From: Candidatus Thorarchaeota archaeon
Lineage (GTDB): Archaea; Asgardarchaeota; Thorarchaeia; Thorarchaeales; Thorarchaeaceae
Assembly: GCA_048884785.1 (NCBI GenBank)
Contig: JBHLQM010000016.1
Coordinates: 8,613 to 54,349, forward strand
Length of the DNA: 45,737 nucleotides
Direction of reading: 5' to 3'
Shown here: one piece after another, positions 24,834 to 35,315 of the stretch
Layout of the letters: the number at the start of each line of letters is the position of its first letter
Numbering within the stretch: the first letter of the stretch is position 1
Position numbers and translations under genes: made by a program
The notes under the pieces: model-generated
The model's database searches: none
Seen by the model: the letters and a program-made list of their open reading frames with translations, nothing else
What the model was told of the DNA's origin: nothing

Positions 24834-25421
24834 GTGAGATATAAAATGGCACTAGACTTTTCAAAAGGCATTACAGAGTTCCGGTGGCATGGAAGAGGCG
24901 GCCAAGGTGTCGTGACATCCAACCAGATGCTGGGCAAGGCAGCCCTCGCAGAGGGAAATTATATCCAGGCCTTTCCAGAATTTGGTCCGGAGCGCACAGG
25001 AGCCCCAGTCAGGGCGTTCCTCAGAATTAGTAAGAAGCCCATTCAGGTCTATGCTCAGGTTTACGCTCCAGATGTTGTTGTCTGTATAGACCCAACGCTA
25101 TTGGATGTAGTAGATCCTGCAGAGGGACTCAAACCCAAGGGCACTCTCGTTGTGAATAGCGGCAACGAACCAGCAGCTATTCGAAAGAAATTCCATTTCG
25201 AAACGGGAACTGTTGTTACAGTGGATGCAAGCAAGATCGCAATGGAAGTAATGGGTAGACCCTTCTACAACATGCCTACAATGGCTGCTGCCGTAAAGGC
25301 AACAGGAATTGTTGAGGTCAAGACGGTTATTGATGAAGTTCTTAGCCGATATCCGGGCAAAGTTGGCGAACTGAACAAGACTGCAATGGAGAGAGCGATG
25401 TCGGAGGCGAAGGTAGGATGA
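24834..25421 (+). CDS. porC: 2-oxoacid (pyruvate/ketoisovalerate):ferredoxin oxidoreductase gamma subunit
   Basis: WHGRGGQGVVT; FGPERTGAPV. Confidence 0.93.
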   Translation: MRYKMALDFSKGITEFRWHGRGGQGVVTSNQMLGKAALAEGNYIQAFPEFGPERTGAPVRAFLRISKKPIQVYAQVYAPDVVVCIDPTLLDVVDPAEGLKPKGTLVVNSGNEPAAIRKKFHFETGTVVTVDASKIAMEVMGRPFYNMPTMAAAVKATGIVEVKTVIDEVLSRYPGKVGELNKTAMERAMSEAKVG

Positions 25422-25714
25422 GCAAGAAATACAACGAAATTCCAATCGCAGGCAACATTGTTGAACCAGGAAATGCAATGGAATACAAGACCGGTGGTTG
25501 GCGGGCTAGAAAGCCAATCCATAGGGATGAGACCTGTCTCTGGATAAAGAATGGCACATGTGGCCTATGTTGGATATACTGTCCAGATAATTCAGTCAAG
25601 TTGATTGAGGAGGATGGAAAGTACTCCTACGAATATGATTATGATTATTGTAAGGGATGCGGTATTTGCGCTAACCAATGCCCAACAGAGAGCATCCATA
25701 TGGAGGATGAGTAA
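25418..25714 (+). CDS. porD: 2-oxoacid:ferredoxin oxidoreductase delta subunit
   Basis: KTGGWR..P; CGLCWIYCPD; DYCKGCGICANQCP. Confidence 0.93.
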   Translation: MSKKYNEIPIAGNIVEPGNAMEYKTGGWRARKPIHRDETCLWIKNGTCGLCWIYCPDNSVKLIEEDGKYSYEYDYDYCKGCGICANQCPTESIHMEDE

Positions 25715-25715
25715 T

Positions 25716-26921
25716 GTGACGACCGTTGAACGTGTACCAAAGGACCAGATTCAGATTGAAGGGCTGACCGGAGATGCTGCAATTGCTCATGCACTCAAGC
25801 AAGCAGATCTCGATGTTCTAGCAGCATATCCAATCACTCCACAGACCATTATTGTAGAGGATTATCAGAAATTCGCTGCAGATGGTGAGATCAAGGCTAG
25901 AGTCATTCCTGTTGAATCGGAACACAGCGCGATGTCGGCCTGTGTTGGTGCATCGGCTGTAGGGGCTAGAGTTGCAACTGCATCAGCTTCTGCGGGATTA
26001 GCTCTGATGTGGGAAATCCTCTACTGTGCCTCAGGCATGAGAATGCCCATTGTTTTCACCGTGGCAAATCGTGCGCTATCTGCTCCAATCAACATCCATA
26101 ATGACTGGAGCGATACATACGGTGCACGGGACAGTGGTTTCATCCAGATTTACTGTCAGAGCAGTCAGGAAGCATATGACACCACTATCATGGCATTCAA
26201 GATTGCTGAGGATCATGATGTTCTCTTGCCGATTATAGTTGCCATAGATGGATTCATTGTGAGTCATAATGTGGAACGTGTTGAGATGCTACCATCTGAG
26301 GCCGTAACGAAGTTTCTCGGAGTAAGAAAACCATTCATCACACTCGATCCAGATAAACCCATTACTATGGGTCCACTCGCACTCACCGATTATTATTATG
26401 AATTCAAACAGCAACAGGTGGATGCAATGAACGCCGTCCCTGAGGTCTTCCATAAAGTCGAGGCAGAATTTGAGAAGATGACAGGGCGAAAATACGGATT
26501 ATTCGAGACCTACCGTACTGACGATGCAGACATCATTCTCTTCACACACAGCAGTCCAGGTGGCACTGCAAAAGCAGTAGTGGATGTACTTCGAGAGCTA
26601 GGTGAAAAGGTTGGAGTAGTAAGACTCCGGATGTTCAGACCATTTCCAGCAAAAGAGGTTGCCAAAGCCCTTCAGAAGGCAAAAGCAGTCGCGGTATTTG
26701 AGAAGTGTATCTCGTTTGGTTCTCCAACAAATCCACTGGCACTTGAAGTCAGAACAGCGTTATATGATCTGGAGAAGCGACCTTTGGTGACTGACTTTGT
26801 GATTGGACTTGGAGGCAGAGATGTTCCACCAGAAACAATTGTTGAGGGATATGAGAAGACAAAACAGTATCTCAAGAAAGGGAAAGCTCCATTTTTTGAA
26901 ACATTGGGGGTGCGTAAGTAA
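25716..26921 (+). CDS. porA: 2-oxoacid:ferredoxin oxidoreductase alpha subunit
   Basis: AYPITPQT; ESEHSAMS; NRALSAP; GLGGRD. GTG 25716 is correctly spaced from GGAGG (the track start overlaps porD). Confidence 0.93.
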   Translation: MTTVERVPKDQIQIEGLTGDAAIAHALKQADLDVLAAYPITPQTIIVEDYQKFAADGEIKARVIPVESEHSAMSACVGASAVGARVATASASAGLALMWEILYCASGMRMPIVFTVANRALSAPINIHNDWSDTYGARDSGFIQIYCQSSQEAYDTTIMAFKIAEDHDVLLPIIVAIDGFIVSHNVERVEMLPSEAVTKFLGVRKPFITLDPDKPITMGPLALTDYYYEFKQQQVDAMNAVPEVFHKVEAEFEKMTGRKYGLFETYRTDDADIILFTHSSPGGTAKAVVDVLRELGEKVGVVRLRMFRPFPAKEVAKALQKAKAVAVFEKCISFGSPTNPLALEVRTALYDLEKRPLVTDFVIGLGGRDVPPETIVEGYEKTKQYLKKGKAPFFETLGVRK

Positions 26922-27880
26922 TGACTGAAGCAGACAAACCAGCAGTCGCAATCAAAGACATGCTCAAGAAGGCTCCAATCCTCACATCAGGACATAGGAT
27001 GTGTGCAGGATGCGCGGCACCTACTGTCGTAAAATTGATGGGCATGGCACTTCGCGGGCCAACCATTGTCTGTGAGGCTACCGGCTGTCTTGAAGTGGCA
27101 ACCACAATCTATCCATATACAGCCTGGAACATCCCTTGGATACATGTAGCATTTGAGAATGCAGCAGCAGTGGCCTCAGGAGTAATTGAGGCTACAAAAG
27201 CCATGTATGAGAAGGGCAACTACAAGCATGAACACGTAGATGTCATTGCTATTGGTGGCGATGGTGGGACATTCGATATTGGCTTTGGTGCAATAAGTGG
27301 TATGCTTGAGAGAGGACATGACATTGTGTATATGGTTTATGACAACGGTGCATACCAGAACACTGGAATCCAGAGGTCAGGCGGCACACTCCCGGGTCAG
27401 GAAACTACAACCTCCTGGGCAGGGAAGGTTGAGCCCGGAAAGAGGGAACGAAAGAAACCTCTAACTGAGATTGTCGCGGCTCACAAGATTCCGTATGTAG
27501 CTACTGTGACACCCGGATATCAGCGGGATTTTATCACCAAGTTTCGCAAGGCGCTTGAAGTTGAGGGCCCAGCATTCATTCACGCCTACTCCCCATGTCC
27601 GAGAGGGTGGAGATCTGAAACAGGCATAAGTATAGAACTCTCCAAGATGGCGGTTGAAACTGGAATTCACCCACTCTACGAGGTCATAGATGGTGAGCAA
27701 TACATCATGTCGGGGCCAAGCAAGAATCTCAAAGAGCTCACACCAATTGAGGACTACTGGAAGACTCAAGGCCAGTTCAAACACCTCTTCAAACCAGAGT
27801 GGGCAGACTTCCGCAAGAAGATTCAGCAGGATATAAACCACGAATGGGAACTCTTGAAGAAGAAATGTGGCGTCGAATAG
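26921..27880 (+). CDS. porB: 2-oxoacid:ferredoxin oxidoreductase beta subunit
   Basis: GHRMCAGC; TPP motif GGDGG..DN; SPCPRGW. Confidence 0.93.
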   Translation: MTEADKPAVAIKDMLKKAPILTSGHRMCAGCAAPTVVKLMGMALRGPTIVCEATGCLEVATTIYPYTAWNIPWIHVAFENAAAVASGVIEATKAMYEKGNYKHEHVDVIAIGGDGGTFDIGFGAISGMLERGHDIVYMVYDNGAYQNTGIQRSGGTLPGQETTTSWAGKVEPGKRERKKPLTEIVAAHKIPYVATVTPGYQRDFITKFRKALEVEGPAFIHAYSPCPRGWRSETGISIELSKMAVETGIHPLYEVIDGEQYIMSGPSKNLKELTPIEDYWKTQGQFKHLFKPEWADFRKKIQQDINHEWELLKKKCGVE

Positions 27881-27894
27881 ACACCATGTGATTG

Positions 27895-27928
27895 CTGGGG
27901 CACTATGCCCCAGTTGCATCTTTTTTTT
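27895..27928 (+). terminator. Hairpin + T8 terminator of the por operon
   Basis: CTGGGGCA-CTA-TGCCCCAG followed by TTTTTTTT. Confidence 0.75.
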
Positions 27929-27969
27929 CTCTCATTTGGAAAGATAGATTTGGTTCCATGGGGTTTCCG

Positions 27970-28009
27970 ATCAAAGCTTGATTGCTATATGCATCAGGTT
28001 TATATAAAC
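27970..28009 (+). promoter_or_regulatory. Probable promoter/operator of the arsR-hgcAB-like operon
   Basis: TATA-like TTTATATA inside the perfect palindrome GTTTATATAAAC (27998-28009), about 26 nt before ATG 28028; a further inverted repeat ATCAA-AGC-TTGAT at 27970-27982. Confidence 0.5.
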
Positions 28010-28018
28010 TAGATTGAT

Positions 28019-28417
28019 ATGAAATTTATGGCGCATGAGCATGTTGAACGTCTTGAGAACCTCGAGAGGTACTGCAAGACCGTTCCCGACAAGGCACCGT
28101 GTTGCGAACCCTTTGATATAAGGAGAGCCACAATCGAGGGTTTTAGACAATCCTTCTCTTCAGTAAGTCCAGAGATCTTTACGGCCTCCTTGAGAACAGG
28201 TATTGTCATGCTGCTACTCAAGATTGAAGAAGCGTGTGTGTGTGAATTTCAATATGCTCTGAATGAACCAAGGCAGCCACTAATGTCGCATCATCTTCGC
28301 AAGATGCATAGCGCAGGATGGCTCCGAAGTGAGCGTCGAGGTCGTTGGACCTACTATGCACTTAACAACAACAAGAGAGAATCCATGCTTCAATTGATTG
28401 ATTTTCTTGGAGAATAA
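28019..28417 (+). CDS. ArsR/SmtB family metal(loid)-responsive repressor
   Basis: EACVCEF (ELCVCDL-like), QPLMSHHL and RRGRWTYY; extra N-terminal C...CC. Start may be 28028. Confidence 0.9.
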   Translation: MKFMAHEHVERLENLERYCKTVPDKAPCCEPFDIRRATIEGFRQSFSSVSPEIFTASLRTGIVMLLLKIEEACVCEFQYALNEPRQPLMSHHLRKMHSAGWLRSERRGRWTYYALNNNKRESMLQLIDFLGE

Positions 28418-28422
28418 CAACG

Positions 28423-30174
28423 ATGGCTGTTGCATTTATGGCGGCGCTAGAAAAAACTCCTGAGAGCTATGACAAGGAGTTTGATGATGTTCTTGATGGA
28501 CGAGCTAGCAAGATAAGAAATAGAATCCTCGAGATGGTAGAATCTGGAATGAAGGTTCTTGATCTCGGATGTGGGCCCGGGGCATTTGCAATCGAAGCTT
28601 CAAAGAAAGGAGCAGATGTTGTTGCCATGGATGCTGACGCAGGAATGATTCAGGTTGCCAGGGAAAGATCATCAGTCCTGCAAAAACCCCCGGAGTTCAT
28701 TTACGGAGATATTCTGCAACTGGGGGAATTTAGCGATTATGAAATCTCGAACGCCCGTAGAGAGTCTGACTTTGACACAACGATTTTGCCCAAGGGAGAA
28801 TATGACCTAGTGGTGAGCACGTTTCTTTTGTCTGAGTTGAAACCACACCAAAGACAGCTGTTCATGCATATTGTAATGACAGTTCTCAAGGACGGGGGCT
28901 CTTTTGCATTCGCGTCCGAAGTCCTTCCTGAAGATAAGTCCGAGGTCAAACGATTTTGGAAGAACCGATCAATAGCAGAAAAAGAGGCAAGACGTCGGTT
29001 TCCACCTCCAATAGCGGATCTTCAGTCCTTGATAAAAGATTCAGGCCTTGAAATAGCCCAGGAAAATCACTATGGCCCAGAAATCTTGCTTGCAATTGGA
29101 TATAGAGGAAAATCGATTGGCACTAATCAGTATCAAAATAGAATACTAAAGTTTCATGGAGCGAGAGCAAGAGCACGCATATGGTATAACCACATTACTG
29201 GTGGGTGGAGAGGAATTCCTATTAAACCCGGGCTCTACAAAGCAGGAAATCCGACACAAGAGAGCCCTGTTGTGGTTACTGCAAATTACGAACTGACATA
29301 TTATACAGTAATGAGAGCATTGGCCAAGGATAAAGTAGATGCGTGGGTGCTTGTATGTGATACTGCTGGGATTAATGTCTGGTGCGCAGCCCGCGGAATT
29401 CACTTCGAAACAGAAGATGTAGTTCAGATGATCAGAGTCACAAGATTATCTGAATTCGTTTCTCATAGAGAGATTCTGTTGCCGCAGTTGGCTGCTGCTG
29501 GAATCAATCCAACTGAGATACGCGAGCGTACGGGTTTTAGAGCTCGTTATGGACCAGTTAAAATCCAAGATTTGGCAAGATGGTTGGAGCTCGGAAAACC
29601 GAGACCTAAACCAAGAGAAATGGCGATCGTAACCTTCAATCTGAGAGAGAGAATGGAGCAAACTGTTGCGCATATTCCATTCTTGTATGCTGCAATCTTG
29701 GCAAAACCGATTCTGGCAATATTAGTAATAACCCTGTTCGGAAGTCTAGGAGCCCTTGTCATCTTTCCTGCTTTCTTCAATGAAATCATATCAACTGCTT
29801 TTAGCGTCCTACTCCTAATAGGAGAATTCAACCTCGCACTCTTTGGAAATGCATTCATCTTGGGAGTTTTCTTCCCCGTTCTGCCTGCTAAAGGCAACTC
29901 CTTCTGGCGGAGAGGCATTGCACTCGCCTTAGGAACACTGCCCTTCGCCGCACTGCTAATGTATATGCTTCAATCTCACTGGACCACCTTCATTACGTGG
30001 ATGATAATTCAATTTGTAATGGCAACATCACTGACAATGGACTGGTCAGGTATGACATCTGTCAGTGACCCAAAGGTGATAAGAAGAGAATACCCATATA
30101 TGGTGACGATGCTCAAAGTTGGCGGTGCCCTGGTAGTAATCTTCAATCTCATAATGATATTCCTAGGATGGTGA
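28423..30174 (+). CDS. Class I SAM methyltransferase fused to an HgcA-like corrinoid membrane protein
   Basis: N-terminal VLDLGCGPG..VAMDAD..YGDI..YDLVVSTFLLSEL; then KPGLY..GNP..SPVVVTANY..DTAGINVWCAARG..SHREILLPQLAA.G..GF...GPV; several TM helices ending MDWSGMTS....IRRE. Confidence 0.88.
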   Translation: MAVAFMAALEKTPESYDKEFDDVLDGRASKIRNRILEMVESGMKVLDLGCGPGAFAIEASKKGADVVAMDADAGMIQVARERSSVLQKPPEFIYGDILQLGEFSDYEISNARRESDFDTTILPKGEYDLVVSTFLLSELKPHQRQLFMHIVMTVLKDGGSFAFASEVLPEDKSEVKRFWKNRSIAEKEARRRFPPPIADLQSLIKDSGLEIAQENHYGPEILLAIGYRGKSIGTNQYQNRILKFHGARARARIWYNHITGGWRGIPIKPGLYKAGNPTQESPVVVTANYELTYYTVMRALAKDKVDAWVLVCDTAGINVWCAARGIHFETEDVVQMIRVTRLSEFVSHREILLPQLAAAGINPTEIRERTGFRARYGPVKIQDLARWLELGKPRPKPREMAIVTFNLRERMEQTVAHIPFLYAAILAKPILAILVITLFGSLGALVIFPAFFNEIISTAFSVLLLIGEFNLALFGNAFILGVFFPVLPAKGNSFWRRGIALALGTLPFAALLMYMLQSHWTTFITWMIIQFVMATSLTMDWSGMTSVSDPKVIRREYPYMVTMLKVGGALVVIFNLIMIFLGW

Positions 30175-30180
30175 TAGAAC

Positions 30181-30510
30181 ATGACACTCGTTGTAGAAAA
30201 ACCAGTACTCGATATTTCATATGACCCATCAAAGTGCAATCGATGTGGCCTTTGCCTTGAAGTGTGCCCCTTCAACGTCTGGGATTTTCCTGATGAGGGA
30301 CCTGCAGTATTGGCACGACCACATGACTGTACAAACTGCACTGCATGCGCTCAGAATTGCCTAGGAAACGCCATTTCTGTATTGAACATTGGCTGCGGTT
30401 GCATATGGAATGAATCAGCTCGACGCCAGGGGCGGCAGCAGGATAAGTTGGTAGGCCCAGATAACAATGCGGATAGTACGTGCACCGGCAATTCATCTTG
30501 TTGCGGCTGA
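30181..30510 (+). CDS. HgcB-like 2[4Fe-4S] ferredoxin
   Basis: CNRCGLCLEVCP and CTNCTACAQNC; IGCGC; C-terminal C..SSCCG; 6 nt after the HgcA-like gene. Confidence 0.85.
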   Translation: MTLVVEKPVLDISYDPSKCNRCGLCLEVCPFNVWDFPDEGPAVLARPHDCTNCTACAQNCLGNAISVLNIGCGCIWNESARRQGRQQDKLVGPDNNADSTCTGNSSCCG

Positions 30511-34413: not shown

Positions 34414-34526
34414 TACCTCTGTATGGACCCAAACTCCCTGCTTTCGCAGGTCTGTCGAGAATTTAGTTAAAAAGGGAGTTGGGGAGTCTTATAGTAATTG
34501 GGACCATAATTATGGAGGTAAATTGT

Positions 34527-35315
34527 ATGAAACCTCTCTCACGTAAACCATATGTATTGTTTCTTCAAGATGATAACGGGGATCTTTTTCATGTAAGACT
34601 TGACCCCTCCCTGATTTCTAGCCAAAATGCTATCATCGTTCTTGATGAAATAAACGACACATGCTGGGTATGGATCGGAAGGGATGTCAACATGCCAACG
34701 AGAATGCATGCCCTCAGAATGAGCAAGAGTGTCCAGAAATCGGGCTATGCGGTGGGGGCAACGACAATTGGGATGTCTCTATCACATCTTATTGAGATGA
34801 TGGAAAAGGATGACAGCGACCCCGACGTTGCAACAAACATTGCCAGCTTCAGAAATACTATCGGAAAGAAGTGGAACTTTGACGATAGTGTCCTCGCATT
34901 TGATGCTGCCAAAGCATCAACATACGAAGCAAAGCCGCCCACAATCGTGGACCATGCGGCACCTGCAACCAAGTCGACATCGAAGCCACCGAAGGTAAAG
35001 AGACCAATAGAGATTATAGCAAAGACGGTTGAAGACGAGCCAATGCCAGCTGCAGTTTCAACTGAACCTGGCCTAGCGGCTGAAAAGAAAGCAGCATTCC
35101 TTTTGTATTCAGCAATTAAGAACACAGATATTGTTTATACTGAACGCTTTGAGCGAGATGGAAACAACGGTCTTAAAATCGAAGCTCCCGGCATCTTGGT
35201 AATAGAAGCGCTCATGAAAGGAAATGATCTATTGATTACACCGCCAGAATTCGGTGATAGTGAGCAAGCCCATGAAATCAAGAAAACATATGAGAGCTGG
35301 CTTAGGAAAATCTAA
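34527..35315 (+). CDS. Gelsolin-domain protein with a Pro/Ala/Lys linker and extra C-terminal domain
   Basis: LISSQNAIIVLDE..CWVWIGRD..RMHALR; GGAGGT SD before ATG 34527. Confidence 0.75.
   Translation: MKPLSRKPYVLFLQDDNGDLFHVRLDPSLISSQNAIIVLDEINDTCWVWIGRDVNMPTRMHALRMSKSVQKSGYAVGATTIGMSLSHLIEMMEKDDSDPDVATNIASFRNTIGKKWNFDDSVLAFDAAKASTYEAKPPTIVDHAAPATKSTSKPPKVKRPIEIIAKTVEDEPMPAAVSTEPGLAAEKKAAFLLYSAIKNTDIVYTERFERDGNNGLKIEAPGILVIEALMKGNDLLITPPEFGDSEQAHEIKKTYESWLRKI

Follow-up and report, generated by a model that had tools for sequence, protein, structure and literature searches.

A conserved fusion of a CpaM-like methyltransferase and an HgcA-like corrinoid protein in Thorarchaeota, with a possible role in metalloid methylation

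We analysed a stretch of 45,737 nucleotides (nt) from a Candidatus Thorarchaeota archaeon (assembly GCA_048884785.1, contig JBHLQM010000016.1, positions 8,613 to 54,349 of the forward strand), which we call the window. It carries a unit of three genes: arsR, a gene that joins a methyltransferase related to the CpaM family to a corrinoid and membrane protein related to HgcA, and a gene for an HgcB-like ferredoxin (Table 1). The fusion is real, conserved and uncharacterised, and its parts already stand under NCBI family names. Its open reading frame (ORF), of 583 amino acids (aa), runs on the forward strand from 28423 to 30174 with no internal stop; arsR stops 5 nt before it, the ferredoxin gene begins 6 nt past it, and coordinate 30510 marks where the ferredoxin gene, not the fusion, ends. 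The DLGCGPG motif occupies aa 47-53, and the cap helix reads GINVWCAARG, with Cys321 encoded by the codon TGC at nt 29383-29385. Pfam matches cover aa 27-213 (methyltransferase families) and aa 268-377 (PF03599), and about five hydrophobic segments lie within aa 415-583 according to AlphaFold helices and hydropathy. The AlphaFold model of the whole chain reached a pLDDT of 89 and a pTM of 0.83, and its best Foldseek match was the HgcAB model 9a0b (E 9e-13). An earlier note on this DNA had described an uninterrupted 583-aa ORF with a methyltransferase, the cap-helix Cys321 and a membrane domain, in an operon with arsR and a ferredoxin gene; coordinates, motifs, Pfam matches and intergenic gaps all agree with that description.

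Table 1. Features of the three-gene unit, in window coordinates
Feature	Position	Strand	Basis
Promoter and probable ArsR operator	27987..28020	+	imperfect inverted repeat around a 12-bp palindrome, overlapping the TATA box
ArsR/SmtB metalloregulator, CxC site (CVCE) and N-terminal Cys pair	28019..28417	+	NF033788, PF01022
CpaM-like class I SAM methyltransferase domain, aa 1-228	28423..29106	+	NF043040, fold
HgcA-like corrinoid-binding domain, aa 262-400, cap helix N318-V-W-C321-A-A-R324-G	29206..29622	+	PF03599, NF043039, NF040863
HgcA-like membrane domain, about 5 helices, aa 401-583	29623..30174	+	AlphaFold helices, hydropathy
HgcB-like 2[4Fe-4S] ferredoxin, 109 aa, GCGC loop, C-terminal Cys-Cys	30181..30510	+	two CxxCxxCxxxC motifs, NF040864

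The junction between the methyltransferase and corrinoid parts was bridged by single contigs from two further runs of the same study (X3, 28477-30099; X4, 27900-30099) and was also spanned in a related strain that a different study had sequenced (X6, 29007-29708). The sequencing runs containing window DNA were sediment metagenomes; no RNA dataset containing it was listed, and a plasmid search with the locus gave no match. The architecture and the NVWCAARG motif recur in more than 50 full-length Thorarchaeia orthologs (identity 49-77%), which, together with the bridging contigs, rule out an assembly artefact or a chance fusion, a doubt that the earlier note had raised. A second group, sharing the motif at about 30% identity, is frequent among Lokiarchaeia and their relatives, and the two Asgard archaea in culture (P. 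syntrophicum, QEE17993; Ca. L. ossiferum, WP_371804651) belong to it. Of the 301 genomes of the phylum, 121 gave a match with an E of 1e-60 or lower, with 26/77 in the family of the source genome and 56/68 in one Lokiarchaeia-type family, counts that take in some paralogs. Comparable fusions of methyltransferase and corrinoid parts exist in Hodarchaeales, Chloroflexota and Poribacteria, and both triple fusions including the ferredoxin (CpaM-HgcAB) and split pairs were found in Thorarchaeia. The architecture, for which the earlier note knew no characterised example, is not rare, and we consider it as conserved in an established set of lineages and not as a one-off. The literature searched gave no paper describing a methyltransferase-HgcA-like fusion, and a sequence search found no solved structure of a close relative.

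For the family assignment we considered the NCBIfam cut-offs of 285 bits for HgcAB-like (NF043039), 275 for HgcA (NF040863), 306 for CdhE (NF003195), 180 for CpaM and 99 for HgcB (NF040864). The fusion scored 210.6, 191.3 and 88.5 bits on the first three models, respectively, all below cut-off; a canonical HgcA used as control (L016) gave 436.4 bits with the HgcA model and 216 with the HgcAB-like one. As regards the HgcAB-like family, the window has its ferredoxin as a separate gene, which scores 51 bits on NF043039, next to the 210.6 of the corrinoid protein. The corrinoid domain superposes on CFeSP 2ycl with a root-mean-square deviation of 1.4 Å over 127 aa (Z 19.5), Cys321 is the same in 52/52 aligned homologs, N318 and W320 are likewise invariant, and the C-terminal membrane domain of about five helices, a trait of canonical HgcA, is present. 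The full HgcA motif N(V/I)WCA(A/G)GK is absent, close orthologs all having NVWCAARG. Precisely, Gly occupies the position of the Lys in canonical GK in almost every CpaM-associated branch, so that the loss of this Lys is not peculiar to the fusion; the Arg preceding that Gly (Arg324) mainly marks Asgard branches. On the invariant Cys321, the cap helix and the fold match to CFeSP and HgcAB we base a putative cobalamin-dependent, HgcAB-like function: judged by its anatomy, the fusion would work like HgcAB, and it very probably binds cobalamin with a Cys ligand.

The corrinoid-domain tree comprised 62 sequences, and a larger tree agrees with it. Canonical HgcA (100/99) and CdhE (100/100) each formed one clade and the fusion fell in neither of them, grouping with Lokiarchaeia fusions at moderate support (93/84). 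A CdhE identity, or the grouping with CdhE/AcsC against which the earlier note had warned, is ruled out by the 88.5 bits, far from the CdhE cut-off, and by the 100/100 branch. The tree suggests that canonical HgcA is nested among CpaM-bearing lineages (94/88), yet approximately unbiased (AU) tests allow alternatives, one clade of all CpaM-bearing lineages giving p 0.54 and the fusion as sister to canonical HgcA p 0.37. The 'complete HgcA' of the earlier note is, in fact, HgcA-like over its full length, but it remains below the HgcA cut-off and outside the canonical clade. By sequence comparison, we classify the corrinoid half as a divergent relative of the HgcAB-like family, and the fusion as not a member of HgcA, HgcB, ArsM or CdhE. 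Some Thorarchaeota and Lokiarchaeota sequences were placed by Lin et al. in the fused-HgcAB subtree (PMC10083202).

Nearest to canonical HgcA (94/88) stand bacterial CpaM fusions from Poribacteria and others (L060:8001-9590, L061:8001-9587, L073:802-2385, L075:2370-3953). L060 has a GK cap helix and the ferredoxins of L061, L073 and L075 have the canonical CMECGAC motif. As candidates for a mercury methylase complete in itself, the four stand ahead of the window gene. One genome of the Asgard phylum (G060, 9% contamination) carries canonical hgcAB (436 bits; L016:1067-2092 and 732-1070) as well as a cpaM/HgcAB-like pair.

For the methyltransferase domain, the best family by far was CpaM (NF043040), with 121.2 bits (E 4e-35); relatives score 117-247 bits on the same model. 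The resemblance to CpaM that the earlier note had pointed out is borne out in this sense, even if the score is below cut-off, and we consider the domain as a divergent relative of that family; the node joining it with stand-alone CpaM was left open in a quick tree. The ArsM model NF008823 (cut-off 263 bits) was not among its top families, and an ArsM-type domain is ruled out, as the domain lies outside the ArsM clade (support 99) and has no As-binding cysteines. The fold search assigned it to class I, with Z about 21 to CmoA and ChlM; its closest folds are small-molecule methyltransferases, and the search gave no clue to the substrate. The GxGxG and TFxLSEL motifs are kept in Thorarchaeia and Lokiarchaeia, and the sole conserved Cys, C50, is inside the motif for S-adenosylmethionine (SAM). 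From fold and motifs, binding of SAM is very likely. The domain shows lower conservation (54% identity) than the corrinoid domain (77%). Each of the non-canonical corrinoid branches sampled had a CpaM-like gene, either fused or adjacent, as against 0/41 canonical hgcA loci.

The ferredoxin scored 50.4 bits on NF040864. Its clusters are formed by C19-C29 and C50-C60, C74 is the equivalent of HgcB Cys73, C72 is an extra Cys, and CTNCTAC stands in place of the HgcB motif C(M/I)ECGAC. In HgcB, Cys73 cannot be dispensed with and one terminal Cys or more is required; these cysteines were proposed to shuttle the metal (PMC7305189). All the Thorarchaeia and Lokiarchaeia copies keep the GCGC loop and the Cys-rich tail with its terminal pair, whereas Chloroflexota and Hdr-linked paralog ferredoxins lack both the GCGC loop and the terminal cysteines; it is on this difference, and on the Cys73 equivalent, that we base a putative metal handling. 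The modelled complex of fusion and ferredoxin scored 0.74 and the best control 0.00, on a scale in which the mark was reached by 58/80 solved and 2/110 mismatched pairs; contact agreement among the runs was at least 73% and partner pLDDT at least 72. The modelled interface places the ferredoxin on the corrinoid and membrane domains, including Arg324 and ferredoxin aa 69-79, and lists no residue of the methyltransferase domain. This result may reflect likeness to the HgcAB model; with this caveat, the ferredoxin is very likely the partner of the fusion. A selenocysteine read-through at the ferredoxin TGA was ruled out, as orthologs stop at the same place with TAA, TAG or TGA.

The arsR product matched PF01022 and scored 53.4 bits on NF033788 (cut-off 55); in fact it probably begins with the ATG at 28028, which would make it leaderless. 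The CxC site is present in all Thorarchaeia ArsR copies examined, usually with the N-terminal Cys pair, and arsR itself is present at half of the Thorarchaeia loci. CxC ArsR proteins accompany both the Thorarchaeia and the Lokiarchaeia lineages, yet the two ArsR groups are separate clades. For comparison, Cys32 and Cys34 are enough for As(III) binding in R773 ArsR (10.1101/2022.10.17.512643). The perfect palindrome (27998-28009) was kept upstream of arsR in 9/9 aligned Thorarchaeia loci, with diverging flanks. A weight matrix built without the window copy found a single site in the 3.6-Mb genome (score 56.3, the rest ≤14) and none before arsM, acr3 or merB of the source genome; a regulon shared with these genes was not found. 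We infer that the palindrome acts as the ArsR operator; its overlap with the TATA box and its uniqueness in the genome fit autoregulation of the fusion operon alone.

We also considered the neighbourhoods of related loci, counting acr3, arsC or arsM genes within 6 kb; some contigs were short and related loci are not independent. Counted in this way, ars genes accompany 16 of the 34 loci of the Lokiarchaeia clade and 2 of the 41 canonical hgcA loci. In Lokiarchaeia the ars genes, whose family identity was confirmed, are often co-oriented with the fusion at gaps of about 50 nt or less, once in the order acr3-arsM-fusion-ferredoxin, and both cultured Asgard archaea have a divergent arsR followed by acr3, fusion and ferredoxin. 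The link with arsenic is strong for the Lokiarchaeia sister clade and indirect for the window locus. The metal(loid) context supposed by the earlier note appears likely, considering the CxC ArsR, the HgcB-type cysteines and the Lokiarchaeia neighbourhoods. A role of the fusion as replacement of ArsM was not supported, as fusion and ArsM co-occur in the same genomes. Other contigs of the source genome encode an ArsC-like protein, a MerB-domain protein and CdhE; canonical HgcA was not found in this genome and no MerA was above cut-off.

Several observations were made beside these loci. In the Lokiarchaeia cassette (L168, L171, L175, L179, L180, L184), a 90-130-aa protein with a CACE/CTCE motif lies 3′ of the ferredoxin gene; the cassette also encodes, on the same side, a membrane protein (about 315 aa) and an 80-120-aa protein ending in GC (or HAD), always before TGA and possibly a selenoprotein, and, upstream, a Cys-containing protein of about 245 aa. 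These unnamed conserved proteins of the cassette had no match among the Pfam and NCBIfam models tried. A second Thorarchaeia paralog (L039, L133, L134, L135) lies amid hdrABC, with a split cpaM, a corrinoid gene with NVWCGSRG and a ferredoxin without extra Cys, a setting suggestive of a part in methyl or sulfur metabolism. In the source genome, a separate ars-type cluster (L187; G000:C26 33855-38187) contains its acr3, small Cys-rich genes, a ferredoxin and a terminal ArsR with CQCD, and the MerB-domain protein (L189:1147-1998) has 283 aa and a Cys-Cys motif. Directly upstream of the unit, on the same strand, the window contains a four-gene por operon (24834-27880) for a pyruvate/2-oxoacid:ferredoxin oxidoreductase, a possible source of low-potential electrons; a fixed link with the fusion was rejected, por being near just 3/15 Thorarchaeia loci, with other genes intervening in two. 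Elsewhere in the window, an 816-aa protein (15865-18315, reverse strand) combines FG-GAP/BBS7-like beta-propeller repeats with a C-terminal Ras-family GTPase, an Asgard eukaryote-like architecture, and a conserved 278-aa protein (34479-35315) resembles by eye an Asgard gelsolin-domain protein.

By analogy with HgcAB, our preferred reading, a tentative one, is that the three genes form an ArsR-repressed, SAM-fed and ferredoxin-reduced membrane cobalamin methylase whose acceptor would be a metalloid bound to thiols, with As(III), or else Sb(III), as the first candidate. A soft metal or metalloid at the CxC site of ArsR would lift the repression at the palindromic operator. The ferredoxin, docked on the corrinoid and membrane domains as in the model, would reduce cobalamin to Co(I), and the CpaM domain, with SAM bound in its class I fold, would pass the methyl group on, giving a Cys321-ligated methyl-Co(III). 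The GCGC loop and the C-terminal Cys pair of the ferredoxin would then offer the thiol-bound acceptor for methylation, and the product could leave through an Acr3-type or other exporter encoded elsewhere. The same order is described for HgcAB, in which cobalamin is reduced to Co(I) through HgcB, receives the methyl group from SAM and, as Cys-ligated methyl-Co(III), methylates thiol-bound mercury (PMC11588087), and MtaA gives a precedent for methylcobalamin-dependent methylation of arsenic (PMC13262295). Of the single steps, passage of the methyl group from the methyltransferase domain to cobalt seems slightly more probable than not, and for a metalloid as acceptor the chances look about even. 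The arsenic part rests on the counts and gene orders in the sister clade, on the cassettes of the cultured species and on CxC ArsR in both lineages. A broader form of the proposal, which we hold to be rather doubtful, is a cobalamin-dependent, ArsM-independent route of As/Sb methylation or demethylation, widespread in Asgard archaea, with the CpaM-partnered form being older and canonical HgcA having lost the methyltransferase.

Several results weigh against a metalloid methylase. No ars genes were within 6 kb at any of the 22 Thorarchaeia loci, the window locus included, nor at the 10 Hodarchaeales, 13 Chloroflexota or 16 HgcAB-like loci, and the Lokiarchaeia loci, being kin, may represent one ancestral linkage. 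Mercury-methylating hgcAB is itself often beside arsR or ars genes (PMC7438021; 10.1101/2022.10.17.512643), hence context cannot tell As from Hg; deletion of hgcAB in Pseudodesulfovibrio mercurii ND132 lowered resistance to As(V) and not to As(III) (10.1101/2022.10.17.512643). The source genome already encodes a canonical ArsM and two Acr3 on other contigs, without a shared operator, and the methyltransferase domain of the fusion has none of the cysteines that bind As. CobS was not found in this genome (91% complete), so the cofactor would need salvage. A CxC site with N-terminal Cys fits Cd/Pb/Zn sensors as well; one Thorarchaeia locus (L192:2001-7722) follows genes for a copper-type heavy-metal P-type ATPase and YHS/TRASH proteins, and the Ca. 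L. ossiferum cassette ends with a CDF cation pump (L190:8028-9497), neighbours that point to a soft-metal context wider than arsenic. Finally, orthologous-looking CpaM/corrinoid pairs lie among hdrABC genes with no metal signal.

These last pairs, and those of Chloroflexota with TetR-type neighbours, are the metal-free settings that one would expect if methylcobalamin served an organic, membrane-associated or sulfur acceptor, with ArsR and ferredoxin sensing redox or sulfur and the Lokiarchaeia ars linkage recruited later. The missing ars genes at Thorarchaeia loci, the small-molecule methyltransferases among the nearest folds and the ArsM already in the source genome go in the same direction; even so, only the branch of the fusion couples a ferredoxin with GCGC and terminal CC to a CxC ArsR, and its sister clade, both cultured species included, sits inside ars operons, so that we regard such an acceptor as unlikely, albeit a serious alternative. 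If the halves acted separately, the methyltransferase directly methylating a thiol, selenide, telluride or methylated intermediate and the fusion merely keeping the two together, one would understand why the domain resembles ordinary small-molecule class I enzymes, is the less conserved half and is a gene of its own in several lineages; against this, all the non-canonical corrinoid branches sampled come with CpaM and the model of the whole chain packs well, and we find separate action very improbable.

A divergent mercury methylase, that is, a functional equivalent of HgcAB overlooked by motif screens and with mercury as main substrate, would explain the retention of the cap-helix Asn, Trp and Cys, of the membrane domain and of the equivalents of HgcB Cys73 and terminal Cys (for the needed features, PMC7305189); moreover, the fusion passes the looser N(V/I)WC(A/S) filter of PMC10083202, its position as sister to canonical HgcA is allowed by the AU test, and a MerB-domain gene is in the source genome. 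Nevertheless, it lies outside the canonical clade, at 191 bits against the 436 of the control; the fused form of HgcAB from Pyrococcus furiosus, the tested non-canonical homolog, fails to methylate Hg (PMC10083202); mer genes were not observed next to any locus examined; and canonical HgcAB uses SAM without a methyltransferase domain (PMC11588087), hence the fusion fills no gap in mercury methylation. Mercury as main substrate is thus improbable, while trace Hg methylation as a side activity, with Hg still not the natural substrate, is unlikely to a lesser degree. Comparably improbable is that the SAM domain is a repair module and that the main methyl flow runs otherwise, for instance from methylated arsenicals to Co(I) and then to one-carbon metabolism. 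The reactivation of methionine synthase by SAM offers an analogy for such a module. Anaerobic demethylation of dimethylarsenate is known (PMC13262295), the source genome has CdhE, and the co-occurrence with ArsM, whose gene is directly upstream of the fusion in L175 and L182, fits a different step. On the other side, the locus has no linked second methyltransferase that might take over the methyl group, and the MetH reactivation domain is unrelated to the class I fold. Ligation by Cys also favours the donation of methyl groups to soft electrophiles (PMC7305189).

The natural job and the origin of the HgcA family are an open question (10.1101/2022.10.17.512643; PMC10083202), and the fusion branch offers a handle on both, having a built-in SAM module, a defined regulator with its probable operator, a sister clade in ars operons and two cultured carriers, so that cultures of Asgard archaea would allow the natural role of the superfamily to be tested. 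In surveys of hgcA, loose motif filters would count the fusion and strict ones would drop it; with 56 of the 68 genomes matched in one Lokiarchaeia-type family, the effect on counts of sediment methylators could be large. Were the broader Asgard route true, it would reveal the activity that the HgcA superfamily had earlier than mercury methylation, or independently of it.

Compared with known systems, the unit resembles HgcA/HgcB (NF040863/NF040864), as in P. mercurii ND132, in the corrinoid domain with a cap-helix Cys, the membrane helices, the 2[4Fe-4S] ferredoxin encoded downstream, which has a counterpart of Cys73 and a terminal pair of Cys, the upstream ArsR and, by prediction, SAM as methyl donor. 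It differs in that an N-terminal methyltransferase replaces the Cys/Sec-rich extension of HgcA, in AARG instead of A(A/G)GK, in CTNCTAC and GCGC of the ferredoxin instead of C(M/I)ECGAC and GVGC of HgcB, in scores below both hidden Markov model cut-offs and in the place of the fusion outside the canonical clade. With CpaM (NF043040) and HgcAB-like (NF043039), named families that are themselves uncharacterised, it shares the same three modules, and they are the top-scoring families for both halves; in the window, however, the methyltransferase is fused and the ferredoxin free, both halves are below cut-off, the tree branch is separate, and the ferredoxin has the HgcB-type extra cysteines that HgcAB-like ferredoxins lack. 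ArsM (NF008823) has in common with it the class I SAM fold and, in the sister clade only, the ars-operon context, whereas the fusion has no As-binding cysteines in its domain, carries cobalamin and ferredoxin modules and coexists with a separate true ArsM in the genome. Finally, CFeSP/CdhE proteins have the same corrinoid-binding fold, but the fusion is without their TIM barrel and N-terminal Fe-S domain, has a cap-helix Cys and a membrane domain, and stands apart from their 100/100 branch.

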